64,000 nt of DNA. Origin: a virus. Lineage: Duplodnaviria > Heunggongvirae > Uroviricota > Caudoviricetes. Shown piece by piece: positions 6,937-61,561 of the stretch; within the stretch, counting starts at the first letter, position 1, and every line of letters begins with the position of its first letter. A program made the position numbers and the translations under genes. The notes beneath the pieces are model-generated. The model worked only from the letters and a program-made list of their open reading frames with translations. It was not told where the DNA came from and searched no databases. The DNA is taken from the IMG/VR virus record IMGVR_UViG_3300037471_000830; one strand, given 5' to 3'.

Positions 6937-6947
6937 GATAAAACATC

Positions 6948-9507: not shown

Positions 9508-9917
9508 TCGCCACCGCTACTTTGTGCCTGGCTGTCAACGTGTACCAGGAGGCCCGTGGGGAACCCATCCCGGGCCAGTACGCGGTGGCGTTCGTGACGA
9601 TGCAGCGAGCCAAGCAGGACCGCAAGAAGGTCTGCAAGGCGGTGTTCGAGCCCTGGCAGTTCTCATGGACCGTCAAGGGCGCAAGGAAAGAGGGCATCGG
9701 CTGGCGAGTCGATACGCCCAAAGAGAAGGATGCGTGGAAAACGGCGCAGATCGTCGCCGACCAAGTGCTTGCGGGCCGGATACCGAACTGGCTGGGTCCG
9801 ATGACGCACTACCACGCGAGGGAAGTCAAGCCACGGTGGCGGCTGGCGATGACGCGCATCAAGACCATTGGCCGCCACATCTTTTACCGATCGAATCAGT
9901 CAGGAGTGACATCATGA
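9501..9917 (+). CDS. SleB/Hydrolase_2-family cell wall hydrolase (candidate endolysin)
   Basis: motif NVYQEARGEP...AVA.V..QRAKQ...WQFSWT matches SleB-type amidase signature; ATG 9501 in frame of ORF 9333..9917. Confidence 0.7.
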   Translation: MLIATATLCLAVNVYQEARGEPIPGQYAVAFVTMQRAKQDRKKVCKAVFEPWQFSWTVKGARKEGIGWRVDTPKEKDAWKTAQIVADQVLAGRIPNWLGPMTHYHAREVKPRWRLAMTRIKTIGRHIFYRSNQSGVTS

Positions 9918-10975
9918 TTTTTGGGGCTCTTTCGGACTCGCACAACCATTCGTGGTCAGCGTTCGCGTCCACCAACAAGGAGGGCGTGAATACGCGCTTG
10001 CAGGAAATCCTCGACGAGACCCTGCGCTGCGCTCAGGAGGTCAAGGACAAGGGCGGCAGGCTCATCCTGCACACGGGCGACCTGTTTCATGTGCGCGGCT
10101 CCGTCGCGCCCTCGGTCCTCAACCCGACGCTGGGCGTGTACCGCCACATCGTCAAGGACATGAGCATGGAAGTGTTCATGCTCGCCGGCAATCACGACCT
10201 GGAGGGACGCGAAGCCGAGCGCGTGGGCAACGCCATGACGGCGCTGGAGGAGGTCGGCGTGCATGTGATCCACGAGCCCTGGGCGGTCGATGCCTACGGG
10301 CTCGCGTTCATCCCGTGGATGCCGTCCGTGGCGGAGCTCAAGAAGCAGATCGAGGCGACACCGCGCCGCAAGGACGAAACGATCCTGCTGCTGCACGCGC
10401 CCATCGACGGCGTGATTCCGGGACTGCCTGACCACGGGCTCGATCCGGCCTGGCTGGCGGGCCTGGGCTTCAAGGCGATCTTCTCCGGCCATTACCACAA
10501 CCACCGCCACATGGGCGGCAATGTCTACAGCGTTGGCGCGCTCACGCACCAGACCTGGAGCGACGTGGGCAGCAAGGCGGGCTTCCTGATCGTGGACAGC
10601 GGCGCCGCTGGCGTCGATGTGACCTGGCGCTGCACCCGCGCGCCGCAGTTCGTGGACATTGGTGCGGGCATGAGCGAAGCGGACATGATGGCTGTCGCGG
10701 ACGGCAACTACGTGCGCGCCCGCATGTCCACGGGCAACAAGTCCGAAATCGAAGGGATGCGCGAGTTCCTGCTGGGCGCCGGCGCCAAGGGCGTCACGAT
10801 CCTGGCCGAGCCGCCCAAGACGACCGTGGCGCGCAGCGAGAGTGCGGTGAAGGCCGGCGCCACGATGGAGGCGTCCGTTTCCGACTACATCGACCGCAGC
10901 GCCTTCGACAGCAAGGAGAAGGTCAAGGCGCTGTGCCAGGACATCCTTCGCGAAGCGCAAGAGGTTGAGGCGTGA
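9914..10975 (+). CDS. sbcD: Mre11/SbcD-family nuclease (T4 gp47-like)
   Basis: calcineurin-like phosphoesterase motifs (SDSHN, HTGDLFH, GNHD, GHYH); directly upstream of Rad50-like gene. Confidence 0.8.
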   Translation: MIFGALSDSHNHSWSAFASTNKEGVNTRLQEILDETLRCAQEVKDKGGRLILHTGDLFHVRGSVAPSVLNPTLGVYRHIVKDMSMEVFMLAGNHDLEGREAERVGNAMTALEEVGVHVIHEPWAVDAYGLAFIPWMPSVAELKKQIEATPRRKDETILLLHAPIDGVIPGLPDHGLDPAWLAGLGFKAIFSGHYHNHRHMGGNVYSVGALTHQTWSDVGSKAGFLIVDSGAAGVDVTWRCTRAPQFVDIGAGMSEADMMAVADGNYVRARMSTGNKSEIEGMREFLLGAGAKGVTILAEPPKTTVARSESAVKAGATMEASVSDYIDRSAFDSKEKVKALCQDILREAQEVEA

Positions 10976-11388
10976 GCGGCGTCATCTGCCCCTACTGCGA
11001 GAAGCCGGCCAAGCTGGTGACTGGCGCGCAGATGTACCCGTACCGCCCGGACCTCGCCGATCTTCGCTTTTGGGACTGCCGGCCCTGCGACGCCTATGTC
11101 GGCTGTCACAAGAACGGCAGCGGTTATGGCGACGGTACGCGCCCGCTGGGGCGGCTTGCCAACGCCGAACTGCGCGATGCCAAACAAATGGCGCACCGCT
11201 TCTTCGATCAACTCTGGAAGTCTGGTGGGATGAAGCGTGGCAGCGCCTACGCCTGGTTGGCGGACGAGCTTCGTATTCCCAAGCAGGACTGTCACATTGG
11301 CATGTTCGACGTGCAGCGGTGCAAGGATGTGGTCAAGGCAGTGCAGCGTCGGTACGCAGGCATTCGAGCCAAAGGAGAACAAGCATGA
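10972..11388 (+). CDS. zinc-finger protein (CPYC...CRPC) inserted between sbcD-like and sbcC-like genes
   Basis: GTG start overlapping previous stop; Cys pairs; ORF track. Confidence 0.5.
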   Translation: MSGVICPYCEKPAKLVTGAQMYPYRPDLADLRFWDCRPCDAYVGCHKNGSGYGDGTRPLGRLANAELRDAKQMAHRFFDQLWKSGGMKRGSAYAWLADELRIPKQDCHIGMFDVQRCKDVVKAVQRRYAGIRAKGEQA

Positions 11389-13319
11389 ATTTCGAGCTGG
11401 TCAAGATCAAGAACTTCCTCACGCTGGCGGACGCCGAGCTGGGTCTGGCGGATCGCGGGCTGGTGCTCATCCAGGGCGCCAACCAGGATGACCCCAGCGC
11501 CAAGTCCAACGGGGCGGGTAAGTCGTCCATGGTGGATGCGATCTGCTGGGCGCTCTATGGCGTCACGGCCCGAGGCGTCACCGGCGACGCGGTGATCAAC
11601 AAGGTGGCGGGCAAGGGCTGCTGGGTGGAGCTGACGCTGCGCGACGACAAGACCGTGATCATGATCCGTCGCCACCGCAAAGACCCGACGCACAAGAACG
11701 CCTTGATGCTGTGGGTGGACGAGAAGGACTGCACCAAGGGCACCGACAAGGAGACCCAGGACGCCATCCTCAAGCTGGTGGGGTGCAGCCAGGATGTCTT
11801 CATGGCGAGCGTGTACGCGGGCCAAGAGCGCATGCCCGACCTGCCAGGCATGACGGACAAGCAGTTGAAGCTGCTGATCGAGGAGGCGGCCGGCGTCGAG
11901 CGGCTGGAGGCGGCCTACACCATCGCCCGCAGCAAACTCACCGTCGCCAAGAACGACCTGACGCTCAAGCAGGGCCTGCGTGCGTCACAAGCCACCACGC
12001 TGGCAAGCGAGGAGGCGTCGTTGCTCACCGCGCAGTCGAACTTCGCCGGCTTCGAGGACTCGCGCAAGGGCTTGGCCGAGAGCTACACCGGCAGCGTCAA
12101 GACGATCGGCGCCGAAGCCCTGGAGCTGGGTCGCAAGATCAAGACAGCGGACAAGCCGGCGCTGCTCAAGCGCCAGGGCGAGCTGGACACGGCTCTTGAT
12201 GGACACAAGGAGCGGGAGTGCAAGCGCGAGGAGCTGCGCGCTGCGGTTGTGGCAGCTGAGCGCGAACATGACCGGCGCACGCGCGAGGAGGAGAACTTCC
12301 TGACTTCCGCGCGTCGTCTCAAGCACGCCTATGAGCATCCCGAGGAGGCTGTGAAGGGCAACTGCGAGGCGTGCGGCAAGCCGCACGATGCGTCGGACGT
12401 GGAGAGCTACCGCACGCACATCAAGGGCCTGCTGGTCGAGGCAGTGAAGCAGGCAAAGGAGGCGAAGGCTAAGACCGCCAACGCCTACGAGGCGCTGGTG
12501 ACGGCGCAGAAGCGGCTGGACGAGTATGTCGCGGCCATGCCGGACATGAGCGCGCTGCTGGTGGAGCAGGGCGGCATTCGCACCAAGCTGGGCGAGGTCG
12601 AAAGCCTGGAGCGCAACTTCGTCCTCAAGCGCAAGGACATGGAACGCGAGAAGGCGAAGGCCGACCAGGCGCTCACCGAGCCCAATCCGCACGCCGCCAC
12701 CGTGAAGCTGCTGACCGAGCGAGTGAGCAAGATCGGCGACGCCATCACGAAGCTCAACACCGAAATCATCGAGCAGGAAGCTGCGGTCCAAGTCCACGAG
12801 CTTGCGTCCAAGGTCTTCGGGCCGGCAGGGGTGCGGGCACACATTCTGGACACCGTGACGCCCTACCTGAACGAGCGGACCAAGGAATACCTGGGCGCGC
12901 TGTCGGACGGGAACATCCACGCCACGTGGTCCACGCTCACCAAGAGCGCCAAGGGCGAGGCGAAGGAGAAGTTCTCCATCGAGGTCATCAACGAGAAGGG
13001 CGCCGAGTCCTTCGATGGTCTCAGCGGCGGGGAGAAGCGCAAGGTGCGCCTGGCGTGCGCGCTGGCCCTGCAAGACTTGGTGGCGTCCCGTGCGGCCAAG
13101 CCGATTTCCCTGTTCGTCGGCGACGAGATTGACGACGCTCTGGACGAAGCCGGTCTGGAGCGGTTGATGGGCATCCTGGAGCGCAAGGCGCGCGACCGGG
13201 GGACCGTGCTCATCATCAGCCACAACTCGCTTGCGGATTGGGTGGACCAGATCATCACCGTAACCAAGAAGGGTGGCGTGTCCACCATCGACGGCGCAAC
13301 CGGCGTGGGAGCCTGGTAA
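11385..13319 (+). CDS. sbcC: Rad50/SbcC-family ATPase (T4 gp46-like)
   Basis: N-terminal Walker A GANQDDPSAKSNGAGKSS, long coiled-coil with CxxC zinc hook (CEACGKPHD), C-terminal signature LSGGEKRKV and Walker B; ATG 11385 chosen over longer ORF. Confidence 0.85.
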   Translation: MNFELVKIKNFLTLADAELGLADRGLVLIQGANQDDPSAKSNGAGKSSMVDAICWALYGVTARGVTGDAVINKVAGKGCWVELTLRDDKTVIMIRRHRKDPTHKNALMLWVDEKDCTKGTDKETQDAILKLVGCSQDVFMASVYAGQERMPDLPGMTDKQLKLLIEEAAGVERLEAAYTIARSKLTVAKNDLTLKQGLRASQATTLASEEASLLTAQSNFAGFEDSRKGLAESYTGSVKTIGAEALELGRKIKTADKPALLKRQGELDTALDGHKERECKREELRAAVVAAEREHDRRTREEENFLTSARRLKHAYEHPEEAVKGNCEACGKPHDASDVESYRTHIKGLLVEAVKQAKEAKAKTANAYEALVTAQKRLDEYVAAMPDMSALLVEQGGIRTKLGEVESLERNFVLKRKDMEREKAKADQALTEPNPHAATVKLLTERVSKIGDAITKLNTEIIEQEAAVQVHELASKVFGPAGVRAHILDTVTPYLNERTKEYLGALSDGNIHATWSTLTKSAKGEAKEKFSIEVINEKGAESFDGLSGGEKRKVRLACALALQDLVASRAAKPISLFVGDEIDDALDEAGLERLMGILERKARDRGTVLIISHNSLADWVDQIITVTKKGGVSTIDGATGVGAW

Positions 13320-19407: not shown

Positions 19408-19479
19408 ACTGCGGTTCTAAAGTTCAGTCATCGCTGAAGCGATAAGCGTTCAAATTTCACACACAAGGAGAAAGCGTTC

Positions 19480-38732: not shown

Positions 38733-38957
38733 ATGCCGACCGTCATCAACGCCAACAGGCAGGTTTCGGTCGTCCTGACCGAGACCGGCGCCAACGCCAT
38801 GAACGCGATCTACGCCGAGTACGGACTCGCTCGGCGCTGGAGCGCGGGCGACGTACTCAAGGACCAACTGTGGAGCGTCATGCAGACGCTCGGCTCGGCT
38901 TTCGTGATGGGTGGCGAGCCGCCCGTCAAGGACTGCGAAATCACTTTGGAGGATTGA
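38733..38957 (+). CDS. hypothetical small protein
   Basis: ORF track. Confidence 0.45.
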   Translation: MPTVINANRQVSVVLTETGANAMNAIYAEYGLARRWSAGDVLKDQLWSVMQTLGSAFVMGGEPPVKDCEITLED

Positions 38958-38959
38958 AC

Positions 38960-39355
38960 ATGGACAAGATCAAGATCAAGCGGATCACGTTGATCCGTGC
39001 CGAGGGTCCGACCTACCAGTGCGGTCAGGTCCACGCGGTCGAAAACTGGACGCAAGCCAACTCGCTGCTGCTGGGCTGGAGCGACACGGCGCCCAAGGGT
39101 GGCGCGGCCGACAAGGTGGACTACCGCATCCGCTTCGCGGACGGCTTTGAATGCCCTGGCACCTACGCGCTCAGGCATTGGGAGGACGAGCGTCCCGACC
39201 TCCAGGGCCGGCTGCGCTCCATCGCCGACTTCTACATGGGCAAGCGATGCCCCGAAGGCTGGAGCATGGACCGCTTCAGACAGCATCTGGAGCAGCCCTA
39301 CACCCGGCGCCTGGCTGAAGCATACGGCGAGCTGCTGCACGCCTACGACATCTGA
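38960..39355 (+). CDS. hypothetical protein
   Basis: ATG 38960 in ORF 38870..39355. Confidence 0.5.
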   Translation: MDKIKIKRITLIRAEGPTYQCGQVHAVENWTQANSLLLGWSDTAPKGGAADKVDYRIRFADGFECPGTYALRHWEDERPDLQGRLRSIADFYMGKRCPEGWSMDRFRQHLEQPYTRRLAEAYGELLHAYDI

Positions 39356-39366
39356 GGAGGACTGCC

Positions 39367-39645
39367 ATGATCACCAGAACCGTGGAAGAAGTGCGCGAGC
39401 GCATGGCGCAGCTCCAGGTGCAAATCCAGACCAGCCAGGACTACACCCGGCAACTGGAGCAGGAGCAGCAAGAGCTCCAAAAGCTCATGGAGCCGGGCGA
39501 GGTCCGCGACGCAACCGACGAGGAAATTGACCTGGCCCGACAAGCCATCGTCTGCGACGAAATCCAGGTGGACAACTTCGCCAAAGCCTTCGACGACGGC
39601 TGCGTGTGGGTCTCGGCGTGGATTCGCATCAAGAAGGAGGACTGA
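39367..39645 (+). CDS. hypothetical protein
   Basis: ORF track; RBS GAGGAGGACTGCCATG. Confidence 0.5.
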   Translation: MITRTVEEVRERMAQLQVQIQTSQDYTRQLEQEQQELQKLMEPGEVRDATDEEIDLARQAIVCDEIQVDNFAKAFDDGCVWVSAWIRIKKED

Positions 39646-39647
39646 CG

Positions 39648-39830
39648 ATGCTCACGTCTAAGCAGATCAAGGCCCTGAAGTGGGCCGTCAAGGAGGCCGA
39701 AGCCTGGCGCGGCTCCCTCACCGGCGGCTTTGAGGGCGATCTCAGGAACTTCGACAAGAACGTCGCGGACGCCAAAGAGGCGCTGAAGGAAGTCCAGGCG
39801 ATGAACAAGCGGGAGAAGCAAGGTGCCTAA
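39648..39830 (+). CDS. hypothetical small protein
   Basis: ATG 39648 with AAGGAGGACTGACG upstream. Confidence 0.4.
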   Translation: MLTSKQIKALKWAVKEAEAWRGSLTGGFEGDLRNFDKNVADAKEALKEVQAMNKREKQGA

Positions 39831-40248
39831 GCTCACCCACGAATTCATGGCGACGGCCAAGCTGCCGTTGCTCGCCTACGAGACCACCTACACCTGGAGC
39901 AGCTCCGACATCAGCGATGCCCGCCTGGTGGGCGGTCAGGTTCGCTCGGTCCTGATCACGCGCTACGGCATTTCTCCGGGATGCAGCGCCCCGTCCATCG
40001 ACTTCAAGGACAGCGATCGGCGCCTGGCTCGCGGCTCGGCGGAAATGTTCTACCAGGACGAGGCGTCGGCCCAGGCGGAAATCGACGAGGCGATGAAGAA
40101 CGCAAAGGAGAACCCGCCCTACAAGGACTTGAAGGCGGAGCGCGATACCTACCGTGAGGCGCTGGAGCTGCTCGCCAACGGCCCGAACGGCTACATCCAC
40201 ATCAGTCTGCGCAAGATCGCCAGCGAAGCCCTGGAGAAGTTCAAGTGA
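39823..40248 (+). CDS. hypothetical protein
   Basis: ORF track. Confidence 0.5.
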   Translation: MPKLTHEFMATAKLPLLAYETTYTWSSSDISDARLVGGQVRSVLITRYGISPGCSAPSIDFKDSDRRLARGSAEMFYQDEASAQAEIDEAMKNAKENPPYKDLKAERDTYREALELLANGPNGYIHISLRKIASEALEKFK

Positions 40249-40436
40249 GCGCCGGCCAGCTCTACCAACTGGCGTCCAAGCGCCAGCTCCAGAAAGGCGA
40301 CTACGTGGCGGTGAACGGACCCTGGGACCGCTTCGGCGTGGTCTGGAAGTCCGAGCCGCAGCCCGATGGCGGCTTCCTCAACCTGATCCGTGGTGTGGCT
40401 GCGCGCCGCTTCACAAAGCCCGTGATGGAGTTCTGA
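40245..40436 (+). CDS. hypothetical small protein
   Basis: ORF track; start-stop coupling. Confidence 0.4.
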   Translation: MSAGQLYQLASKRQLQKGDYVAVNGPWDRFGVVWKSEPQPDGGFLNLIRGVAARRFTKPVMEF

Positions 40437-42926: not shown

Positions 42927-42941
42927 GGGCGCCACAAAGCA

Positions 42942-42971
42942 AGGGCCAGGATCACCACCTGGCCCTTTTCT
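42942..42971 (+). terminator. rho-independent terminator (AGGGCCAGG-atcaccac-CTGGCCCT + TTTCT)
   Basis: 9-bp stem and T-run directly after brnA-like stop. Confidence 0.6.
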
Positions 42972-43856
42972 ATTGCACAAGCGGAATTGCATAAGCCCAC
43001 CCACCAGGCCAAGGACAAATTCCAAGTCCTGACAGCCACTTAGAGCAATCCGCATCCAGAATTCTGCTCAAAACCGCAGTTCTGAATCAGACCAGAACCC
43101 GCAGCGAAGCCCTCAGAAAATCACACCCCAGCAAAGCCCATAGAACCGGGCTACAAGCGCGCCAAAACGCCCGGGAGTACCACGACAGCACCGAACCCGG
43201 CAAATCGCGCATAGAGCGTTTAAAGGGCTCGTCTCCAAAAGCCCAGGCGGGACCGAACTTCCCGCGATCTTCTTCCACCAAGGAAAGCTTCAAAGCCAAG
43301 GCTGCTTCCCCAAGCCGTCGCCGTAAAGATCAAAAGCTCTTACCTTCTTCTCTATATCTATATCTTTACGCTGAGGGGTGGATTCCCCAAGTCCCAAACT
43401 TCCACGCCAAGAAGGAAGACCTCACCGGAATCAGGAACCAACGCCTCAGCTGGATCGGCCAGGAAAACCGTAAGCGAGAAGACCTCGGCGGAATCCAACA
43501 CGGAGAAGGACACGGAGAGAAGACTGGACAGGCATGGAGAGAAGATCACCGGAGAGAAGGATCAACCCATAGGCTCAATGTAGGGAGAGAAGGCTGGATA
43601 GATCAGGAAGCCCATGTGTTCGGCTGTAGAGCTGGATATGCCTAGGAATGCGCCTGACCGTTCTCTTTGGCTTTTCGCCTCTCTGCCCTGTTCACCCGTT
43701 TTCCACCTCTCCGCCCTGTTTTCCATCCCTTCACCCGTTTTCCATTGGGTTGCCTATCCTGAAAAACCTCACATCGCCGCCAATCCTTGCACAGCCTCAC
43801 CCCGCGCCAAGGAAAGCCAAGGACTGCCTACACTCAGCAGCCAGAGGGAGAAAGCC

Positions 43857-44141
43857 ATGAACAATCCAAAGCCCGCCACATTCGTCCTGGTGATGCTCCG
43901 GGAGCTTGGCCGCGCCGAGATGTTCCTGACCACCGCCGAGGACGAACTTGCCCGCCACCAGATCATCTATGCCTTCTCTCCAAGGACGGAAGGCACCGGC
44001 TTTCAGATTCGCATCCGGCGTGAGTTCCTGGAGCCGGCCAACCTCATGGATGAGGAAAGCCTAGGCGCGGTGGAGCGCGCCATCGAGGCGGAGCTTCTGA
44101 CGCTGTTGACGCTCCACAGGGCCAAAGCCAAGGCTGCCTGA
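43857..44141 (+). CDS. hypothetical protein
   Basis: ATG 43857 with AGGGAGAAAGCC RBS inside ORF 43614..44141. Confidence 0.45.
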   Translation: MNNPKPATFVLVMLRELGRAEMFLTTAEDELARHQIIYAFSPRTEGTGFQIRIRREFLEPANLMDEESLGAVERAIEAELLTLLTLHRAKAKAA

Positions 44142-44275
44142 TTCATTCCTTCTTCTCTCCTGGGCCAAGGAAAGCCTAGGCGGGGTTGCAGGCGACGCAG
44201 CTCTCCTGTCTCTATCTCCTGAGTGCGGTCGGTGAAATACACCCATCGACAACAACGACACGGAGAGAAGAAGGA

Positions 44276-44578
44276 ATGCCCAAGATCATCCAAATCAAAG
44301 GTTTCTACGAAGGCGATCACATCGAGCACATCTTGGGCGAGCAGGCTGCGGAGCCAAGGGAGGACTGGAAGCGCATCCAGCGCGTTCCGCTCGTCGAGGG
44401 CCAGCCCTGGTTCAACGCCTACCCGATGACGGGTGGCGCGGTGATCGTCCAGCAGCACCGGATCGTGGAAGTGCGTGAGGCGACGCTGGACGACTTGGAG
44501 AAGGTCAAGCTGTGCATGCCCTTCAATCCTGCGTACCAGCGCGTCCTGGCGCTGTTCCAGGCTGAGGCGCCGGCATAG
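44276..44578 (+). CDS. hypothetical protein
   Basis: ATG 44276 with GGAGAGAAGAAGGA RBS; followed by terminator. Confidence 0.5.
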   Translation: MPKIIQIKGFYEGDHIEHILGEQAAEPREDWKRIQRVPLVEGQPWFNAYPMTGGAVIVQQHRIVEVREATLDDLEKVKLCMPFNPAYQRVLALFQAEAPA

Positions 44579-44602
44579 TCCTGGATGTGACCGGAGAGAA
44601 GG

Positions 44603-44622
44603 AGAGGGCTTCGGCCCTTTCA
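44603..44622 (+). terminator. terminator hairpin (AGGGC-TTCG-GCCCT + TTC)
   Basis: same GGGC-TTCG-GCCC core as other terminators in window. Confidence 0.5.
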
Positions 44623-44906
44623 TGAGCACGTCAGGGCCTAGGCATACGGCGGCGAGGCTGAAAATCCTTGGCTTCGAGGCCGGAAGCCGCCGTAGAGCTG
44701 CCGGAGTCCATGGAAAGCCTAGGCGCGGTTTTCCTATAAGACACTAGATGTAGTGTCCAGTCATGCCAAAAACTCGGGTTTTATGACTCCGTGGACACTA
44801 GATGTAGTGTTTGGCTGGTTCACAGGCGGCGTGCAGCGCCAGCGTGGCCTGCCTGGGGCTGACGGGCGTAATGAGGGCTCCCGAAACACGACCTGAGCCC
44901 GATTCC

Positions 44907-45152
44907 ATGAACATCCAGTTCGCGATCAATTCCACCCTGCATGCCGCTGCCTGTGGTCTCGATATGTCCGACTGCTGCGCAATAGGCATCCACGACAGCG
45001 AGGGCTGCATCCTGGCCCATGACGTGCTCCACCCCGAGACCCTGGAACGGCTGGTCTCGGCGGGCGTTCGCATCCTGCGCGGTCACGTCGCCATCCTGAG
45101 CTTGTGCGGTGTGGACTACGTGACGGTCAAGGCAGAGGTCACGGAGCTGTAA
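44907..45152 (+). CDS. hypothetical Cys-rich small protein
   Basis: in-frame ATG in ORF 44811..45152; followed by terminator. Confidence 0.4.
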   Translation: MNIQFAINSTLHAAACGLDMSDCCAIGIHDSEGCILAHDVLHPETLERLVSAGVRILRGHVAILSLCGVDYVTVKAEVTEL

Positions 45153-45155
45153 TCC

Positions 45156-45177
45156 GAGGGCTTCGGCCCTTTTGGGA
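45156..45177 (+). terminator. terminator hairpin (GAGGGC-TTCG-GCCCTT + TTGG)
   Basis: GC stem with TTCG loop and T-run. Confidence 0.5.
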
Positions 45178-45243
45178 ATCGACGCCATGGAAAGCCTAGG
45201 CGTGATGGTGTGCAAAAGAAAAGGAGCCGAAGCTCCTGGTCCT

Positions 45244-45468
45244 TCAGCCCGCCATTTCGGCGTGATACCGGGCGTCTGCCTGACGCTCGCGGTATATGGA
45301 AGCGTACTGTCCGATTTTCTTGATGGCGCCTTCCTTGGTTCGGCACTTCAGAATCACCTCCTCAATCTCCTTGTCCTCCCACGCTTCGACGATCACGTCC
45401 CAGCCTTCCTCGTAATGAGCGTTGGCGTGATCGCGGACGGCTTGGATCATTTCGTGCATCGGAACCAT
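45244..45468 (-). CDS. hypothetical small acidic protein (only minus-strand ORF in repeat region)
   Basis: ORF track; amino-acid composition more protein-like than overlapping + strand ORF 45172..45612. Confidence 0.45.
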   Translation of the reverse strand: MVPMHEMIQAVRDHANAHYEEGWDVIVEAWEDKEIEEVILKCRTKEGAIKKIGQYASIYRERQADARYHAEMAG

Positions 45469-45738
45469 GATGAATTTCGGTGTCGGTTGTTTCGGGAGCC
45501 CTCAGTATCTGAAGTGGGCGCAGGATCGTGGCGCTCCAAATTCAGGTTGCCTCAGAGGTCGCCGATGCCGGCAAGAAAGCCTAGGCATCTAAGCCCCAGC
45601 GCCAGGCTCTAAGCCGCTGTCCTAGGCTTTCCATGGCGCGCTTGCATGCCTGCGCAGCTTGCCTGGGGTCCGCCTGAAGCGGGCTTGCATAGTTCAGTCA
45701 TCGCTGAACTACAGCACAAACCAGACCGAGGAGTGATC

Positions 45739-45912
45739 CATGCAAGCCCTGAAGCCTTCCATCCTGCCCGCGCTGCCCATTGACGCCGACGCCCACGACG
45801 ACGAGCACTACGCCTACGAGCTGATGCAGGAGGAGCTGGAGATTCAGGAGCTGCGCAGCAAGCGCCAGCGCATCGCCCGTCCGCACTTTGCTGCCGGCAT
45901 GGAGCGCCACTG
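45739..45912 (+). CDS. hypothetical small acidic protein (57 aa)
   Basis: ATG 45739 preceded by GAGGAGTGATCC and the AGTTCAGTCATCGCTGAACT palindrome; translation read manually. Confidence 0.3.
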
Positions 45913-45914
45913 AA

Positions 45915-46130
45915 ATGCCGCGCTACTGGATTTTCAACGCCGACTACAAGCGCATCGCCGAAACCGACAGCCTGGCCGAAGCGCGCTTCTTCGCCGGCTT
46001 GGTGAGCTTCCACCCTGGCACGTCTATGGAGCGTCGCGTGTACGAGGCGGTGGACATGAAGACCACGCGCTGCATCCAGGCCCAGCCGCTGCTGCCTTTG
46101 GTGATGGCGGAGATGCTGGACAAGCAGTGA
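45915..46130 (+). CDS. hypothetical small protein
   Basis: ATG 45915 in ORF 45888..46130; followed by terminator. Confidence 0.4.
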   Translation: MPRYWIFNADYKRIAETDSLAEARFFAGLVSFHPGTSMERRVYEAVDMKTTRCIQAQPLLPLVMAEMLDKQ

Positions 46131-46140
46131 TCGCGCGACG

Positions 46141-46162
46141 GGAGCCTGTGGGCTCCTTCTCT
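46141..46162 (+). terminator. rho-independent terminator (GGAGCC-tgtg-GGCTCC + TTCTCT)
   Basis: perfect 6-bp GC stem plus T-rich tail. Confidence 0.55.
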
Positions 46163-46799
46163 ATGGGCCAGAGAACGCCTAGGACCGTCTGCCAGCGCCT
46201 TGGAGCGCGGCGGCATGGCTGGATTCCTTTGGCTTTGGAGAGCGCGGCGGCGCTGTAGAGGGCTCTGGAGAGGCTGCTGGTGCCTTGGAAAGCCGGCAAT
46301 GCCATGGAAAGCCTAGGCGTTGCTGGAGATGGATTTGGAGCTCTGGATTTCGGAGTACGGCGGACTGGCTGGAAATCCTTGGATTTTTGTGTACGGCGGC
46401 GAGGCTGGAAACGTTAGGAGTAATATCGCGCGGCGGGGCAGGGCGGTCGCTCAAAACCGCAGGTCGCCTTTTCGAGCGCGAGCGGCCGAATCCACGACAG
46501 AAGCCAAAATCCGCGTCAGAAGTCATTTCCACTGGAAATGCGAAAAACCGCAGGAGTCGCGGTTTTCACCGGAAAAGCGAATATGCGCAGGAGTCGCAGT
46601 TATTGCGACTGACGCGGGTTCCATGGGTTTTACGGGTCCACCAGTCTTTACGCTTTTTGGGTTTATTCCAGAAAGTTCGTTCCGCGTTGAATGGGGGCAT
46701 GCATAAGTCAGCAGTGAGTGCATAATGGGCACCAGTTCGCAGCACGGTGCAGCGAACGAAGCAGAGCAAAGTTGCTCAGTCACTAGTGAAAGGTTTCAC

Positions 46800-47703: not shown

Positions 47704-47774
47704 ATAATAAGTCAGTGGTGACTGTTTCACGTGAAACGGTCACCCCGCAAGTAAATCAGCAAAGCACTCAGATC

Positions 47775-49182: not shown

Positions 49183-50796
49183 TCAGGCCGCCTTCTTCAG
49201 GTCGGGGAAGCCTTCGGCGTCGTAATCGAAGTCCGCGCCGCCCAACAGGATGCCTTCGGCAAAGCCTGGGGTGTTGGACACGATCTCTCGGCGCTGCTTG
49301 GCGTGCTTCATCAGGTTCTCGTTGAAGCGGTCCTCGAAGTCCACGATGAAGCAGGTGTTCGGCCCCGCCTTCTTCGCCCGCAGGCCGCGACCGACACGCT
49401 GACGCAGCGCGACCTCGGCCTTGCCGCCACCGGCCAGGATCACCATCCCCACAGCCGGCACGTCCACACCCACATCCAGGATGGTCGTGCCAATGAGCAC
49501 GTCGAGCTTGCCGCTGCTCAGGGCTTGCAGCGCCCGCTTGCGCCCGACCTGATCGTCCTCACCCTGGATAAAGCTCGCCCGCAGACCCCGAGCCTCCAGC
49601 AGCTCCATCAGCCGCTCGCCGTGCTTCTTGTGCTGAACCAGCGCCATGACGGTGAGGCCACGGCCGACCGCGCGGTGAGCCTCGAAGGCAATCGCCTGGT
49701 TGCGCTCCTCGTTCTGCACGATGCCCAGCCGGTAAGCCGCCTGCCAGGCGGTGTTGCGCATCAGGTGCTCGGGCTTGGTGTGGAGCTGCACGAACTTGAA
49801 GATCGGGCGGGCCAGGATGCCGCGCTCGATGAGGGTCTGCTCCGAGACACGGATGGCGATCGGGCCGGAGGACGCCATCAGCCGCATGTTGGCTTCTTCG
49901 TCGCTGCGCATGAACGGCGTGGCGGTCAGCGCCAGCCGGTAGTGCGCGTTGATGCAGTGGCGCAGGATGTCGTAGTACGAGTTGCCGCCCGCCTCGTGGG
50001 CTTCCTCCAGGATCACGAACTCGAACTTGGACAGCAGGTTGATGGTCTGCTCGCGCAGCAGGGCTTGCTGACGCTGCTTTTCCGGCGTGTCCTTCGGGTC
50101 AGGCTCTGCCAGGCGAGCCACCAGGGTCTGCACCATGCCCACGGACATTTTCTTGATCGCGCTGCGCTCACGGCCATCGGCACCGACGATGGTGTGACCA
50201 AACTGGCCGTCGCCGAGCACGGACACCGACTGCTTCAAGTCCTTCTCGAACGTGTCCTTCATTTGGTACATGAGGACCGAGCGCGTGGTCAGGAACAGGG
50301 TGGGGCGGTTGATGCGGGCGAATGCCAGGCGGGCGATGCGTGATTTGCCGCCACCCGTGGCGACCTGGGCAATGATTTGGCCGTGCTTCACCAGCCGGCG
50401 CACAACTTCGGGCTGATAGTCGTAGCGCGGGTCTTCCGGGAACTCATCGACCACGGGATTCTCGGGACCAAGTGGCGCGGGCATGGGCTTTCTGACAAGC
50501 CGCACTTCGTAGCCATCGCGCTTCAGGTGCGCAGTGACGAAATGCACGAACCCGGCAGGGAAGGTGCCCTTTTTGAAATCGAGAAAACTGGATTTGCCAT
50601 CCCAGCGGCCGGTCTTAAACAGCATCGTGTTTTCGTGACCGGCCACGGTGTACGAAAGCGCGGTCTGGACCAGCAATTTGGCGTCGCGGTCGGGCTCGTG
50701 CAACTTGGCCGTGACGGCATTGGCAAGAATGGTGATCGTCTTCATTTTGGCTGTGGCTTGACCGCGCTCCATAAGGACATTATTATAAGTCATCAC
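49183..50796 (-). CDS. SF2 DEAD/DEAH-box DNA helicase (UvsW-like)
   Basis: motif I ATGGGKS, motif II ILEEAH, motif III LTATP, motif VI QRVGRGLR; alternative start at 50745 (MKTITIL). Confidence 0.8.
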   Translation of the reverse strand: MMTYNNVLMERGQATAKMKTITILANAVTAKLHEPDRDAKLLVQTALSYTVAGHENTMLFKTGRWDGKSSFLDFKKGTFPAGFVHFVTAHLKRDGYEVRLVRKPMPAPLGPENPVVDEFPEDPRYDYQPEVVRRLVKHGQIIAQVATGGGKSRIARLAFARINRPTLFLTTRSVLMYQMKDTFEKDLKQSVSVLGDGQFGHTIVGADGRERSAIKKMSVGMVQTLVARLAEPDPKDTPEKQRQQALLREQTINLLSKFEFVILEEAHEAGGNSYYDILRHCINAHYRLALTATPFMRSDEEANMRLMASSGPIAIRVSEQTLIERGILARPIFKFVQLHTKPEHLMRNTAWQAAYRLGIVQNEERNQAIAFEAHRAVGRGLTVMALVQHKKHGERLMELLEARGLRASFIQGEDDQVGRKRALQALSSGKLDVLIGTTILDVGVDVPAVGMVILAGGGKAEVALRQRVGRGLRAKKAGPNTCFIVDFEDRFNENLMKHAKQRREIVSNTPGFAEGILLGGADFDYDAEGFPDLKKAA

Positions 50797-50810
50797 TGAC
50801 TTCTATAAGC

Positions 50811-52406: not shown

Positions 52407-53044
52407 AACCCAACATCCAAGTCTGGTCCGTCGAGGACGTGAAGCCCTACGAGGCCAACGCCAAGAAGCACCCACCCGAGCAGATTCGTCGCATCGCCAA
52501 GTCGATCAAGGAGTTCGGCTGGACGCAGGCCATCTCCGTGGACAAGGACGGCGTGATCATCGCCGGCCACGGCCGCCGCCTGGCTGCGATGGAGCTGGGG
52601 CTGAAGCAAGTGCCGGTGTGGGTGCGTGACGACCTCACGCCGGAGCAGGTCCGCGCCGCGCGGCTGGCCGACAACCGCGTGGCCGAGTCCGAGATCGACA
52701 CCAACCTCCTGCAAGCCGAGCTTCGCGCGTTGGACTTCGACCTCTCTGGCATCTTCGACGACAAGGAGCTGGCCTTCCTGGATGCCGACTTGGCCGAGCT
52801 CAACGCCGACGCCTTCGTCGCTGATCTGGACGCCGAAGTGGAGCGCCAGGCCGAGGAGACCCGCGCCAAGATCAAGGAAGTGGACGAGCGCACGATCCGG
52901 CTGGACCAGGCGTTCGGCTTCAAGAGCATCAAGGGCGCCGATGAGCGGGCGATTGCCATGTTCATGGCGCAGATCGAGAGCGAGACCGGCAAGGAGGGCG
53001 CCGAGGCCCTGGTCGAGCACGTCAAAACCTACCGCGGAAAGTAA
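52403..53044 (+). CDS. ParB N-terminal-domain nuclease-like protein (second copy)
   Basis: VIIAGHGRRLAAMELG ParB box. Confidence 0.6.
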   Translation: MKPNIQVWSVEDVKPYEANAKKHPPEQIRRIAKSIKEFGWTQAISVDKDGVIIAGHGRRLAAMELGLKQVPVWVRDDLTPEQVRAARLADNRVAESEIDTNLLQAELRALDFDLSGIFDDKELAFLDADLAELNADAFVADLDAEVERQAEETRAKIKEVDERTIRLDQAFGFKSIKGADERAIAMFMAQIESETGKEGAEALVEHVKTYRGK

Positions 53045-53051
53045 GTCATAA

Positions 53052-53459
53052 ATGACTGCCAAAAAAGTTGCCGCCAAGACCGAGGCCGTTGCCGCTACGA
53101 CGCGCGGCCTCATTACCGACGAGCAGGTTTATGCCGCCATGCCGCGCGTCGTGAAGGTCGGCTGCTATGACTTCACCATCGAGGTCATGGACGAAATCGA
53201 GGGCAACGCCAGCGATGCCTTTGGCTACTGCTATCCCGGCAAGCAGACGATTCGTCTCCTGTCTGGACTCAAGCGCCAAAAGCTCGCCAACGTCTTCCTG
53301 CACGAAGTCCTGCACGGCATCCACTGGTTTCACGGCCTGGGTGACGAGAACAACGAGGAGGACTTCACCCTGCTGGGCGCCAACGGCATGTGCGCCTTCT
53401 TCCAGGACAACCCGGACGCCGCGGCCTGGTTCATGGCGGCCAACAAGGGGGCGCGATGA
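53052..53459 (+). CDS. small HExxH zinc metallopeptidase-like protein (SprT-like)
   Basis: FLHEVLHGIHW motif with upstream GY.YPG..IRL pattern reminiscent of SprT/WLM family. Confidence 0.45.
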   Translation: MTAKKVAAKTEAVAATTRGLITDEQVYAAMPRVVKVGCYDFTIEVMDEIEGNASDAFGYCYPGKQTIRLLSGLKRQKLANVFLHEVLHGIHWFHGLGDENNEEDFTLLGANGMCAFFQDNPDAAAWFMAANKGAR

Positions 53460-53587: not shown

Positions 53588-54258
53588 CCACCTACGTCAT
53601 CAACAAGCGGTTCTCCACCCACGTCCAGCGCAGCGACCGCGTGCTGGAGATCGCCGAGGCGTTCGGGCTGGGCCTGGACGACAAGGAGTTCGTCGTTTAC
53701 GACAACCTGGCGCTGGAGGTTCGCCGAGGCGACGTGGTTTACATCACGGGCCAGAGCGGCAGCGGCAAGTCCACGATCCTGCGTGAGCTGATCGGCGCCA
53801 TGAAGGCCGAGGGCCTGCTGGTGGCCGACATCGACCGCGTGGAGCTGCGTGAAGTGCCGCTGATCGACCAGATCGGCGACACCACCCAGCGCGGCCTGGA
53901 ACTGCTGTCCATCGCCGGCATGAACGACGCCAACCTGTTCGTGCGCAAGCCCAGTGAGCTTTCGGACGGCCAGCGGTATCGCTTCCGGCTTGCCAAGGTC
54001 ATCGAGTCCGGCGCCCAGGTGTGGGCGGCCGACGAGTTCATGGCCGTGCTGGACCGCGACACCGCCAAGGTCATCGCCTACGCCATCCAGAAGTGCGCCC
54101 GAAAGATGGGCGCAACGCTCATGGTCGCCACCACGCACACCGACATGGTGGCCGACCTGGCGCCCTCCATCACCATCACCAAGAAGTACCGCGAGAAGGT
54201 CCACATCGAGAGCGTGTGGGTCAAGGAACACAACGAAGAAAGCAAGGAAGCGCAATGA
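53584..54258 (+). CDS. minimal ABC-type ATPase (nucleotide-binding domain only, 224 aa)
   Basis: Walker A GQSGSGKST, Q-loop, signature LSDGQRYR, Walker B VWAADEFMAVLD, H-loop ATTH; GTG start overlapping previous stop. Confidence 0.7.
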   Translation: MTTYVINKRFSTHVQRSDRVLEIAEAFGLGLDDKEFVVYDNLALEVRRGDVVYITGQSGSGKSTILRELIGAMKAEGLLVADIDRVELREVPLIDQIGDTTQRGLELLSIAGMNDANLFVRKPSELSDGQRYRFRLAKVIESGAQVWAADEFMAVLDRDTAKVIAYAIQKCARKMGATLMVATTHTDMVADLAPSITITKKYREKVHIESVWVKEHNEESKEAQ

Positions 54259-54716
54259 CGCACCGCTACATCGGAACGAAAGAAATCATGGCCTGGCCGA
54301 CCGAAAAAGACGGCAAGCCAGGCTACAGCGTCAAGTACGCAGATGGCTACATAAGCTGGAGTCCGGCTTCCGCGTTCGAGCCGGCCTACCGTCGCGCTGA
54401 AGGCGGAGACCAGCGCCTGACCTTTGGCGATGCGCTGCACTTCCTGAAGCTGGGGCGACGCGTCGCCCGCGCTGGCTGGAATGGCAAGGGCATGTGGTTG
54501 GCCTATACGCCTGGCAGCCATATCGGGCGCGAATGCGTCAAGCCCGGCCACGCATTGAGCCAGGTTGCGGTCGATCTGCCTGAGCGCGACCTGTTCCGCA
54601 TTGAAGCGCACATCGACATGCGGACCTCTGACGGCTCGCTGATGGTCGGCTGGACGCCAAACACACTGGACGTGCTGGCCGAGGACTGGATGGTCATCGC
54701 GGAGGGCGCGCAATGA
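54255..54716 (+). CDS. DUF2829-family protein (Thoeris anti-defense Tad2-like fold) with N-terminal extension
   Basis: FGDAL.FLK.GRRVARAGWNGKGMWL and HIDMRTSDGSLM.GW..N..D.LAEDWMVI resemble the DUF2829 signature. Confidence 0.55.
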   Translation: MTHRYIGTKEIMAWPTEKDGKPGYSVKYADGYISWSPASAFEPAYRRAEGGDQRLTFGDALHFLKLGRRVARAGWNGKGMWLAYTPGSHIGRECVKPGHALSQVAVDLPERDLFRIEAHIDMRTSDGSLMVGWTPNTLDVLAEDWMVIAEGAQ

Positions 54717-55248: not shown

Positions 55249-56170
55249 AGTCCTGCTGGACAACGAGGAGCTGCGCGTCGAGCGCCGGGAGGTTCCCAAG
55301 GACCACCGGCTCTCGCTGCTGTCGCGCTGCTACATCGAGGCGGGCACCAAGGACGATTGGAACCTGCTGCACGAGCTCCACTACAAGGCGGAGCGGCTGG
55401 GCATCGGCCCGCGCTACTGGCGCTGCGTCATGGACGGGCAGACCATCGGCGTGGGCGTCATGACCGTGCCCAAGATGCTCCTGTCCGGGCGCAACAAGGC
55501 GTTCAAGCACCTGAAGCCCAACCAGGGTGGCGGGCGCGACACCAAGCTCATGAACCGCCACCGCGCCGTGTGGATGAACGAGGTCATCTGCACCAACTCG
55601 CGCCTGGTCCTGGACACCATGTATCGCGGCGCCGGCCTGGCGTACCGGATGCAGAACCTGATGATGCGCATGACGGGCTGCCAGAGCATCGAGTTCCAGT
55701 CCTCGATGTCCAAGTTCAACCCGTTTGCAGAACGGGCTGGCATGCGCTTCACCAAGCCGTCGCGCGCTCAACACTACGAGCGGGGCCTGAAATGGTTCCG
55801 CCGCTGGTTCGAGTGCAACCCGTCCGACTTCGTGGGCCTGATGGACGAGCTGCAAGCCATGCCGGAGCGAGCCAGAGACAAGTGCGTCGCCGAGATGCGC
55901 CATCTTTATTACGCATGCTCTGCCATGGAGAAGTCCGGCGACAACCGCATGAACGGCACTTCGCGGGTGGATGGCATGTCCGTGCCTTACCTGATCAAGT
56001 CCTTGCAGCAGTTGATCCTCGCCAGCCCGCTTTATGGCGTGTACCTCAACCCTGATTTCGGCCGCGAGCTGCCTGATCGCATTCCTGTGCTCGCCTTTGA
56101 TCTCCAGGCCGTCGATCAACCGCTGAACCTTGAGGGCGTAAATCGCCTGAGCGCCGAAATAAATCAGTGA
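55235..56170 (+). CDS. hypothetical protein with GNAT-like motif A (LDTMYRGAGLAYRM)
   Basis: ORF track; GNAT call is weak, single-motif based. Confidence 0.5.
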   Translation: MRAAEVLLDNEELRVERREVPKDHRLSLLSRCYIEAGTKDDWNLLHELHYKAERLGIGPRYWRCVMDGQTIGVGVMTVPKMLLSGRNKAFKHLKPNQGGGRDTKLMNRHRAVWMNEVICTNSRLVLDTMYRGAGLAYRMQNLMMRMTGCQSIEFQSSMSKFNPFAERAGMRFTKPSRAQHYERGLKWFRRWFECNPSDFVGLMDELQAMPERARDKCVAEMRHLYYACSAMEKSGDNRMNGTSRVDGMSVPYLIKSLQQLILASPLYGVYLNPDFGRELPDRIPVLAFDLQAVDQPLNLEGVNRLSAEINQ

Positions 56171-56535
56171 CCGCCGTGACTAGCTCCGCAGACCTCTACC
56201 TGACCACCAAGCAGATTCAGCTTATCTCCGTGGTGGGCCAGCGTAATGACGATGGTTCCGCCATCGACCTTGACGAGTTGCTCGAAAGGCTGCCGTACCA
56301 GCCCTCCAAGCAGAGCGTGCAGTTCAGCCTCAGAGCCCTGGTCAAGCGCGGACTGCTCGCCAAGTCCGAGGCCACGGAGCTGCGGCGCGGCCGCAAACGC
56401 CGGCTCCTGGAGCTGACCGAGGCCGGCAAGACCTTCCTTGGAAGCCGCGCCCGCTCCCATTCCGCGACTTCCTTCATGGTTGCGGCTGACGAAGACGAGG
56501 GCTTGGAAGCCCTTGAGGCGCTGAAAATTGGTTGA
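56167..56535 (+). CDS. winged-helix (PadR/MarR-like) DNA-binding protein
   Basis: QFSLRALVKRGLLAKSE...RRGRKRRLLELTEAGK helix-wing pattern. Confidence 0.45.
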   Translation: MTAVTSSADLYLTTKQIQLISVVGQRNDDGSAIDLDELLERLPYQPSKQSVQFSLRALVKRGLLAKSEATELRRGRKRRLLELTEAGKTFLGSRARSHSATSFMVAADEDEGLEALEALKIG

Positions 56536-56822
56536 CTTCGACAACTTGTTTTTTTACCCCCTCAGCGTAAATATATATAGATAAGAAGAAGAACAGAGAA
56601 AGCTAAAACGTTTACGCTGAGCGAGGCGAAAAACAAGTCCAAGCTAAGTCAACGCTGACAGGGCGGAACGGAAAACGCAGCCCCAAAGAAGCCGCCAACA
56701 TGACCCGAAGCTACCCACGCCGCCCCTCACCGGATTGGCGGTCTCCCAAGCCCCTCAAAACGCGCCGGAACGTGACCGCGCTCGCGGTGCTCGCCCCGGT
56801 CTTCTCGTTGCATCAAAGATCA

Positions 56823-56863
56823 GTCAGCACTGACTTGACAAACGCCAAGGCATCGGTTATCTT
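56823..56863 (+). promoter_or_regulatory. sigma70-like promoter (TTGACA - 17 nt - TATCTT) overlapped by GTCAGCACTGAC palindrome, upstream of terS
   Basis: TTGACA 56835..56840; -10-like 56858..56863. Confidence 0.4.
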
Positions 56864-56932
56864 TGGCGCTCCTTTCAAAGTCATATCCCAGGGCGCCTTC
56901 TCCAGCGCCCATTTTTTTGCCCATTCGAGCCC

Positions 56933-57565
56933 ATGAGCGAAACGCCCGCCAAGAAGCCGCTGACGCCGCGCCTCAAGGCGATTGCGGAAGCCCTGTGGAA
57001 GACCGGCGAGTTCAAGAGCCGCCGCGAGCTGGCAAAGCACCTGGAGGTCAGCGAGAGCGCCCTGGCCGCCTTCATCAAGATCGAGGACAAGGGCAAGGCC
57101 GTCGAGAAGGTCAAGGAGGCGGTCGAGGAGGCTGCGGTCGAGGCTGCGGTCGAGGAGCTGACGCTGCACCAGCGCCGCGTCCAGGACACCAAGGAGCAGC
57201 ACTACAAGATGGCCGAGCACATCGCCGGCTTCGTGTGGAAGGAGCTGCTCAAGGCCAAGTCCGAAGGCATCCCGTTCGGCGTGGTTGCGCCCAACATCAA
57301 GGCGCTGCACGAGGCGATGGCCGTGCTCAACAAGGCACGTGTCGAACGCTACGCGACCTTGGGCATCTCCGAGGACGACGTGGGCGAGGAGGAAGTGCCG
57401 GAGCTGTTCATCTCCGAGCTGACCCAGGAGCAGGTCGAGGAAATGCGCCTGGCTCAAGAAGATGACGACTCGGTAGGCGAAATGCCCGATCCCGAGGAAG
57501 ACCCTGGCAAGGGCGTCGTGGACACCACCGACGACGAGGACGACGGCGTGGAGGAGCTGTCCTGA
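56933..57565 (+). CDS. terS: terminase small subunit (putative)
   Basis: N-terminal HTH-like segment, highly acidic C-terminus, immediately upstream of and coupled to terL (ATGA). Confidence 0.55.
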   Translation: MSETPAKKPLTPRLKAIAEALWKTGEFKSRRELAKHLEVSESALAAFIKIEDKGKAVEKVKEAVEEAAVEAAVEELTLHQRRVQDTKEQHYKMAEHIAGFVWKELLKAKSEGIPFGVVAPNIKALHEAMAVLNKARVERYATLGISEDDVGEEEVPELFISELTQEQVEEMRLAQEDDDSVGEMPDPEEDPGKGVVDTTDDEDDGVEELS

Positions 57566-61426: not shown

Positions 61427-61458
61427 TTCTGATCGCTGCCTTAATAAGTCACTGATGA

Positions 61459-61488
61459 CTTGACAATTTGGCATTGTCCATGTTATAT
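61459..61488 (+). promoter_or_regulatory. sigma70-like promoter (TTGACA - 17 nt - TTATAT) flanked by two copies of the AAGTCA-N4-TGACTT palindrome
   Basis: -35 TTGACA 61459..61464, -10 TTATAT 61482..61487; palindrome 61445..61460 overlaps -35, second palindrome 61491..61507. Confidence 0.55.
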
Positions 61489-61561
61489 TGTCAGTCATCG
61501 GTGACTAAGAGCGACGTTAGCCTCCGAAGCAATCCACCCCAATCTGTAGAAGGACACTGAG

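Follow-up and report, generated by a model that had tools for sequence, protein, structure and literature searches.

At the origins oriF and oriG of phage T4, transcription from a promoter that has no -35 box forms an R-loop in a neighbouring unwinding element; this origin promoter also expresses the downstream gene, and the T4 UvsW protein removes origin R-loops. The pac and parS sites of phage P1 have an AT-rich centre flanked by short hexamer or heptamer repeats, while herpesvirus oriS and oriL combine an AT-rich centre with inverted initiator-binding boxes and occur in several copies and differing orientations. Phage T5 harbors the elements IRC-spacer-IRD and IRD'-spacer-IRC', 131 bp in size, in untranslated repeat regions of its left terminal repeat (Davison, bioRxiv 10.1101/866236). 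Two AT-rich elements, called A and B, are described here from a stretch of 64,000 nt of a Caudoviricetes genome (IMG/VR record IMGVR_UViG_3300037471_000830), referred to below as the window, which is a 62 % GC phage genome segment. They represent one lineage-specific cis element present in two copies, and sequence comparison tentatively suggests a factor-dependent promoter or regulatory element devoid of a -35 box.

Similarity between elements A and B

The initial annotation had reported an AT-rich hairpin on the minus strand of 43321-43385, reading CTCAGCGTAAAGAT / ATAGATATAGAGAAGAAGGTAAGAGCTTTTG / ATCTTTACG, and a duplicate of it in opposite orientation. The letters were read exactly and the partner was located on the plus strand at 56536-56640, in inverted orientation as claimed. 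Only the third of the words listed as shared was incorrect: it should be AGAAGAAG, and B carries AAGAAGAAG, not GAGAAGAAG. The blocks common to both elements were as follows.

43344-43378, minus strand: block of element A common to B, CCCCTCAGCGTAAA-GATATAGATATAGAGAAGAAG, with 31/35 identities to 56558-56591
56558-56591, plus strand: block of element B common to A, CCCCTCAGCGTAAA-TATATATAGATAAGAAGAAG, from the alignment to A

The best local alignment of A with B covered 35 nt with 31 identities (score 23.5) and followed the pattern CCCCTCAGCGTAAA-[G/T]ATATAGATA..AGAAGAAG. It included the exact 14-mer CCCCTCAGCGTAAA, which occurred twice in the window (43365-43378, minus strand; 56558-56571, plus strand); this pair could by itself lie within the chance range for 64 kb. 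Composition-preserving shuffles, in which the AT-rich core and the flanks were shuffled separately (n = 5000), yielded a mean score of 7.8 (sd 1.4, maximum 16.5), and none of the 5000 attained the observed score. The runner-up match to B within the whole window scored 11.5, and A and B were the richest two of only five islands with at least 18/24 A+T in 64 kb. Because the match exceeds all shuffles, has no close runner-up and joins the two AT-richest islands, A and B are genuinely and specifically similar.

Related phages

According to DNA and protein searches, the phage grouped with ~105-115 kb siphoviruses and phage-plasmids of the Nickievirus / RHEph10 assemblage. Its named kin were Pseudomonas phage nickie/Nican01, Rhizobium phages RHEph10, RHph_N1_10 and B1VFA, and plasmid-prophages pLM21S1 and pRlX6 (PMC7969092, PMC5537653). 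More than 600 IMG/VR contigs carried the same terminase. No close relative was found in IMG/VR, JGI metagenomes or GTDB genomes, where helicase identity reached at most 71 %, and base-level footprinting was therefore impossible; searching IMG/VR for the exact pattern of the A/B motif gave no match either. T5-like terL displayed 27-29 % amino-acid identity over about half of the protein. Matches to ~110-kb Klebsiella phages had been considered as Sugarland (T5-like), an assignment that was dropped since the terL search showed T5-like phages to be remote. The searched parts of the family literature (PMC8537276, PMC11256456, PMC12509600, PMC5537653, PMC7969092) make no mention of the AT-rich elements.

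Terminal repeats of 3,605 bp (B1VFA, by PhageTerm) and ~3,939 bp (V1VFA-S, by coverage) have been published (PMC12509600), and the packaging class of Nican01 was given as 'DTR (long)' (PMC11256456). A and B had been considered as the two limits of a long terminal repeat, a reading abandoned since repeats of the published size are too short for it (PMC12509600). GenBank record starts of nickie, Nican01, B1VFA and RHph_N1_10 were arbitrary and contig ends were scattered; both were therefore uninformative on physical ends. One contig of a relative (Ga0209310_1000059, 216,877 nt, loci L178/L179) harbored two helicase copies 108,012 nt apart, which is a head-to-tail dimer assembly and is consistent with concatemeric or circular replicative DNA. 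The first bases of locus L137, at the end of IMGVR_UViG_3300045988_155863, were the Illumina adapter AGATCGGAAGAGCG, either an assembly artefact or a real end joined to adapter.

Element B in relatives

Element B lies between terS and a gene for a protein of 122 amino acids, p122, which was conserved immediately upstream of B in every relative.

56167-56535, plus strand: p122, phrog_900, with weak winged-helix PadR/HTH_27 matches (E 5e-5, under the Pfam cut-off)

For comparison of the B position, 44 loci qualified and 33 non-redundant relatives were kept, the core being defined as the AT-richest stretch of the p122-terS gap. All 33 displayed an AT-rich island in this gap; in directly read loci it was found 80-370 nt, and mostly 150-240 nt, past the p122 stop. 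The anatomy recurred across relatives while the sequence did not. Gene order terL-terS-[gap]-p122-ABC-ParB2-ParB1, beside a divergent helicase, was identical and in the same orientation in 35 out of 35 long helicase-anchored loci. The 13-kb segment separating A and B was therefore inverted in none of them, and the inversion in relatives envisaged by the initial annotation was not seen.

Short motifs surrounded the B cores. CTTGGG was found 36 times within 110 nt of them against 4.5 expected (8.1x, P 8e-21), and GGGGAA was 8.9x enriched within the same distance. These G-rich hexamers occupied one or both sides of the core, and in L086, L135 and L146 they were spaced by ~10 nt on both sides. In relatives, the hexamers were followed by a C-rich stretch and CGTA, then by a TATA-rich core of 35-60 nt with a purine-rich 3' edge. 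About 13 out of 30 elements displayed significant, phage-specific inverted arms across the core, with spacers of 39-96 nt; the arms of L105 were perfect over 26 bp. Several relatives displayed perfect palindromes of 15-16 bp at both A and B (for example CTTGGGAsTCCCAAG). In most directly read relatives, a gene of 90-145 amino acids started (ATGAAT...) within the purine-rich 3' edge of the core or at most 40 nt past it. The product of this gene matched no known family, and it had no homologue in the window.

Second copies in relatives

In a control for second copies, each B core was aligned to its own distal flank and to those of 32 other genomes. Self scores topped all cross-genome scores in the window (23.5), L105 (29.5), L106 (19), L120 (32.5), L123 (18.5), L146 (21.5) and L153 (21), and direct inspection revealed two copies in each of the isolates B1VFA and RHph_N1_10. 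Nickie and ~70 % of the metagenomic relatives displayed no second copy within the DNA fetched. The two copies were inverted in the window, L105, L106, L120 and L146, and direct in L123, L153, B1VFA and RHph_N1_10. A-like copies were found 7.3-9.9 kb past the helicase gene start, in a non-coding region preceding a block of small genes. The two copies of each phage resembled one another and not the copies of other phages, which is the pattern expected if one co-evolving phage factor reads both sites.

Two isolates gave further indications. Both copies of B1VFA (A-like, record positions 40,013-40,113; B-like, 54,243-54,363), 14.2 kb apart, displayed a perfect TATAAT, and the B core of this phage had the operator-in-spacer layout of its ordinary promoters. 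The A-like copy of RHph_N1_10 ended 25 nt ahead of the first gene of the small block.

The non-coding region before the small genes, 0.9-1.5 kb long, was kept as a feature (window, 43410-43744; nickie, 100,393-101,484; B1VFA, 38,842-40,334; RHph_N1_10, 6455-7545). Each phage displayed its own short iterons there: CGGAGAGAAG and TTCACCCGTTTTCCA in the window, GCCGCGG in nickie, GTTGACA in RHph_N1_10 and CCTTTACA in B1VFA. This region is a candidate site of the origin or of the genome ends.

Structure of the elements

Both elements are AT-rich tracts bordered by inverted repeats, those of B being the longer.

43340-43369, no strand: AT-rich core of A, 19/24 A+T
43322-43370, no strand: inner inverted repeat of A, CGTAAAGAT / ATCTTTACG, 9 bp with a 31-nt spacer
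43306-43314 and 43383-43391, no strand: 9-mer direct repeat TTCCCCAAG around A, 77 nt apart
56544-56638, plus strand: element B in full, with 28-nt arms (56544-56571 / 56611-56638) that are 82 % complementary
56647-56660, plus strand: operator-like palindrome AGTCAACGCTGACA of the AGTCA-N4-TGACT family, 8 nt past the right arm of B

The inner arms of B formed a perfect inverted repeat of 11 bp (CTCAGCGTAAA, 56561-56571; TTTACGCTGAG, 56611-56621) around a 39-nt AT-rich spacer. B folded significantly as DNA or RNA on either strand (z = -3.3 to -4.9), with an inverted-repeat z of 6.5. The inverted repeat of A extended imperfectly to 43315-43330 / 43362-43377 (inverted-repeat z 2.2), and its fold did not exceed shuffles (z = -0.9 to -1.5 as DNA or plus-strand RNA, +0.26 as minus-strand RNA). 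The hairpin announced by the initial annotation was thus borne out for B only, the 9-bp stem of A not surpassing shuffled sequence, and to speak of one complex hairpin in two copies was an overstatement, since significant folding was limited to B.

The minus-strand form of TTCCCCAAG, CTTGGGGAA, carries the flanking hexamer found family-wide (the CTTGGGG motif). The TTCCCCAAG pair could be read as a target-site duplication, yet it coincides with this family-wide motif. Searches for other features were negative: Rfam gave no match at gathering score over the whole window, a tRNA scan gave nothing, and no DnaA, integration host factor (IHF) or CtrA consensus boxes were present at the elements. 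Folding downstream of A and B did not exceed shuffles (z -1.9 and +1.4, respectively), and a structured non-coding RNA was unsupported.

Genomic environment

Both copies occupied non-coding DNA at module boundaries, as had been proposed, and relatives displayed the same arrangement with their own sequences.

42941-42967, plus strand: strong intrinsic terminator closing the upstream plus-strand cluster (terminator scan), left limit of the non-coding region of A
43410-43744, plus strand: short-repeat arrays beside A, GAAGACCTC..GGAATC twice, CGGAGAGAAG four times (43513-43592) and TTCACCCGTTTTCCA twice (43691-43744)
56822-56918, plus strand: separate module between B and terS, outside the repeat, with operator AGTCAGCACTGACT, TTGACA-17-TATCTT, hairpin GGGCGCCTTCTCCAGCGCCC, then T7

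Third-position GC and open reading frame (ORF) analysis indicated that plus-strand genes run to 42926. A was found in the 890 nt of non-coding DNA (42970-43857) that separate the terminator from the first small gene (43858), with the arrays of short repeats to its right; it precedes the small-gene block and is not at its end, where the initial annotation had placed it. ORFs within 42930-44200 had no homologues in relatives. The small-gene block, from 43858 to ~48800, was poorly coding. Six copies of GGAAAGCCTAGGCG were scattered across it (43806-46328), some of which overlapped ATG starts (ATGGAAAGCCTAGGCG); they may represent a recurring stretch of N-terminal coding sequence, or else a signal in DNA or RNA.

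A UvsW-like superfamily 2 (SF2) helicase was encoded further on (49183-50796, minus strand), followed by two ParB-N-domain proteins, an ABC-type ATPase, p122 and then B. B had been described as lying just before terS; it is indeed upstream of it, but 340 nt ahead (terS at 56933), and a separate promoter and a hairpin/T-run intervene. The rest of the window encoded DNA polymerase, SSB, a UvsX-like recombinase, an SbcCD-like nuclease, ribonucleotide reductase and thymidylate synthase, among others. A T4-style recombination set (UvsX-like, 6948-7955; SbcCD/gp46-47-like, 9524-13319; UvsW-like, 49183-50796) was present in a siphovirus/phage-plasmid lineage, and the SbcCD-like nuclease co-occurred with long palindromes such as B.

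Promoters and operators

Ordinary promoters of this phage fitted the sigma-70 consensus and carried AGTCA-N4-TGACT, the late promoter scoring 10/12. This palindrome was found at 18 sites window-wide (at most one mismatch) against 1.5 expected, for example at 47710-47723, 50788-50801, 53044-53057, 56822-56835, 61447-61460 and 61493-61506. Copies of TAGTTCAGTCATCGCTGA were located at 19420, 22469, 34122, 34223 and 45690. The inspected operator copies (50788, 56822 and the TAGTTCAGTCATCGCTGA set) adjoined promoter-like hexamers. The palindrome probably serves a phage-encoded global regulator as operator; its counterpart in B1VFA was AAGTAAG-N4-CTTACTT, within promoters.

The module at 56822-56918 was also encountered upstream of terS in L087, L094, L096, L097, L104, L109, L146 and L153. 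It was composed of an operator palindrome with TTGACA-17-TAnnnT, a near-invariant hairpin GGGCGyCTTCTCCAnCGCCC and T7-9, ~20 nt before the terS start, and looks like a promoter-proximal terminator before the late operon.

Predicted function

A and B are held to be functional rather than chance copies, their function itself being predicted. Conserved position, phage-specific sequence, within-genome likeness and symmetric flanking motifs together point to a co-evolving phage DNA-binding protein whose sites flank a meltable core. Each element would consist of an easily melted TATA-rich core of 30-45 bp, bracketed by sites for this phage-encoded protein, namely phage-specific arms (CAGCGTAAA here) and the family hexamers CTTGGG / GGGGAA. 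Instead of a -35 contact, it would be this protein, once bound, that recruits host RNA polymerase to the AT-rich core or blocks it there, and A and B would be switched together. B, present in every relative and mostly just ahead of the small gene that precedes the late promoter, would be the ancestral copy, and A a duplicate at the edge of the small-gene block, which is presumed to be early. We infer protein binding, transcription initiation and co-regulation at both elements. Potential binding proteins are encoded nearby, namely the winged-helix p122, a helix-turn-helix TerS-like protein and the two ParB-like proteins; p122, with its weak domain matches, is a candidate.

A promoter is favoured because the universal copy is coupled to a gene start, B1VFA displays TATAAT together with the operator layout, the copy of RHph_N1_10 ends so close to a gene, and the small-gene block lacks an ordinary promoter, none of the operator type being found upstream of the small genes from 43858 onwards. 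Such a regulated promoter, which was absent from the functions listed in the initial annotation, is at least as likely as an origin.

Several observations nevertheless weigh against a promoter. A gene-facing position was displayed by B in most directly read relatives and by A in RHph_N1_10 and B1VFA, but by neither copy of the window, where no credible ORF followed either of them: A faces left into 370 nt of non-coding DNA and converging genes, and 240 nt past B the separate promoter begins. Orientation of the A copy relative to neighbouring genes differed among phages, which would be odd for a unidirectional promoter, and a second copy was detectable in only seven out of 33 genomes. A sigma-70 scan (-35/-10, 16-18 nt spacing) found no site at A or B, and 32 family B cores gave six forward matches where shuffles predict 5.9. 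Among the 40 annotated proteins there was neither a sigma factor nor an RNA polymerase.

Among the other functions, replication origins are possible, if doubtful: the sequence would provide an AT-rich unwinding element with flanking initiator-binding repeats, possibly of the T4 oriF/oriG type, which would be compatible with a regulated promoter. The elements are the AT-richest sites and are bracketed by symmetric arms and, in several loci, by hexamers ~10 nt apart; orientation-independent function would suit the variable orientation of A, which moreover resides in the repeat-dense non-coding region with its own iterons in each relative, and the phage encodes a T4-style set (UvsW-like, UvsX-like and SbcCD-like proteins, SSB and DNA polymerase). 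For the origin proposed in the initial annotation, an AT-rich unwinding element is present; DnaA, IHF or CtrA boxes were lacking and no initiator gene was recognised among the annotated proteins. Moreover, the universal copy B is placed among packaging genes and tightly coupled to a gene start in relatives, iteron arrays are found at A alone, GC skew was uninformative, and most relatives harbor a single copy. It is rather unlikely that A and B are, more specifically, transcription-activated (R-loop) origins of the large and widespread Nickievirus / RHEph10 / AB- and SSU5-related assemblage of phages and phage-plasmids. A phage protein on the CTTGGG hexamers and the phage-specific arms would open the TATA-rich core without a -35 box, and the UvsW-like helicase encoded between the two sites would later shut the origins off, as in T4. 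Origins of this T4 R-loop type would merge the promoter and origin readings, and variable orientation and copy number would then be how each lineage sets fork direction.

Sites of an architectural or partition type, at which the two ParB-like proteins or p122 would organise or silence DNA, are improbable. In every relative the DNA between A and B encodes two ParB-N-domain proteins, the family includes phage-plasmids that have ParA (PMC12509600, PMC5537653), and the palindromes of 15-16 bp at A and B in several relatives are parS-sized, such sites being orientation-independent; but the elements of the window have no clean 16-bp palindrome, the window has no ParA, and the long AT-rich core and the coupling to start codons would be left unexplained. 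Quite improbable are terminase recognition (pac) sites or boundaries of direct terminal repeats, as is a packaging or genome-end role for one of the copies. B is upstream of terS in all relatives, hexamers on both sides of a centre recall P1 pac, the family has long direct terminal repeats (Nican01, PMC11256456; B1VFA, PMC12509600) and A occupies a non-coding region where genome ends are expected. The packaging proposal of the initial annotation is nonetheless weakened by the contrast between repeats of 3,605 / 3,939 bp and an A-B spacing of 14.2 kb in B1VFA, by the gene, promoter and terminator-like hairpin that separate B from terS in most relatives, by variable relative orientation and by contig ends that do not pile up consistently at either element. 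A small cassette of a mobile or duplicative kind (resembling a miniature inverted-repeat transposable element or the promoter/stem-loop cassettes of T4-type phages), copied to another intergenic site where it would do little by itself, would account for the sporadic A copy, encountered in either orientation, and for imperfect terminal inverted repeats of 16 nt in A, inside the 9-bp direct repeat TTCCCCAAG, and of 28 nt in B. This is very improbable, as B kept the same syntenic position in all relatives despite diverged sequence, the apparent 9-bp duplication is the family-wide CTTGGGG motif that is enriched around B elsewhere too, B has no target-site duplication, and A copies are confined to the same non-coding region. 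The inverted copies of the window and the strong hairpin of B at an operon end could finally suggest crossover sites inverting the 13-kb segment, or bidirectional intrinsic terminators, both of them proposed initially and both extremely improbable, being refuted to the extent that sequence allows: the segment kept one orientation, the copies are direct in four relatives and no recombinase is encoded in the segment, while the loops of 31 (A) and 39 (B) nt are AT-rich and without T-run, and the terminator scan called neither.

The element described here belongs to a known kind, an AT-rich melting site flanked by putative protein-binding repeats, and is real and conserved in these phages. In this family, origins, promoter classes and genome ends are undefined, and a conserved, easily recognised cis element is an experimental handle. 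The element, which evolves together with its phage and delimits the helicase/ParB block, could be used for mapping the early-to-late switch or the replication origin, for finding the cognate DNA-binding protein and for engineering these phages. The family is abundant and includes Pseudomonas syringae Nickievirus biocontrol candidates as well as rhizobial and Acinetobacter phage-plasmids.

Comparison with known systems

The promoter-hairpin-T-run module upstream of terS, which is distinct from A and B, is comparable to lambda pR'/tR' with Q antitermination. As for the elements themselves, they share with herpesvirus oriS/oriL an AT-rich centre with inverted flanking boxes, the occurrence in several copies of variable orientation, and an encoded SF2 helicase. 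The lineages are unrelated, however, spacers are 31-96 bp here against about 18 bp, and sequence-specific binding by the helicase is not implied. Repeats flanking an AT-rich centre, as a putative recognition layout for a phage DNA-binding protein, also recall P1 pac/parS, from which the elements differ by the absence of an IHF consensus, by two copies 13 kb apart and by a spacing that published terminal-repeat sizes do not fit.

T4 oriF/oriG and the MotA middle promoters resemble A and B in a layout, predicted for the latter, of a -35-less promoter that depends on an activator site and precedes an AT-rich unwinding element, and UvsW/UvsX-type proteins are common to both phages. In contrast to T4, no MotA/AsiA homologue or MotA box was found here and the flanking sites of A and B are symmetric about the core.

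Because T5-like phages are remote at terL, the comparison with T5 is an analogy and not a homology. T5 elements have paired DnaA boxes while A and B have none, and the T5 copies, separated by 3.2 kb, both belong to the terminal repeat of a phage to which that of the window is not alike. Both systems nevertheless display two copies per genome in inverted orientation, kilobases apart, each composed of an inverted repeat, a spacer of about 50 bp and an inverted repeat within repeat-dense non-coding DNA. Both are also conserved over a phage family, present as a single copy in some relatives and of unproven function. The IRC/IRD pair of T5 is the closest described parallel to elements A and B.

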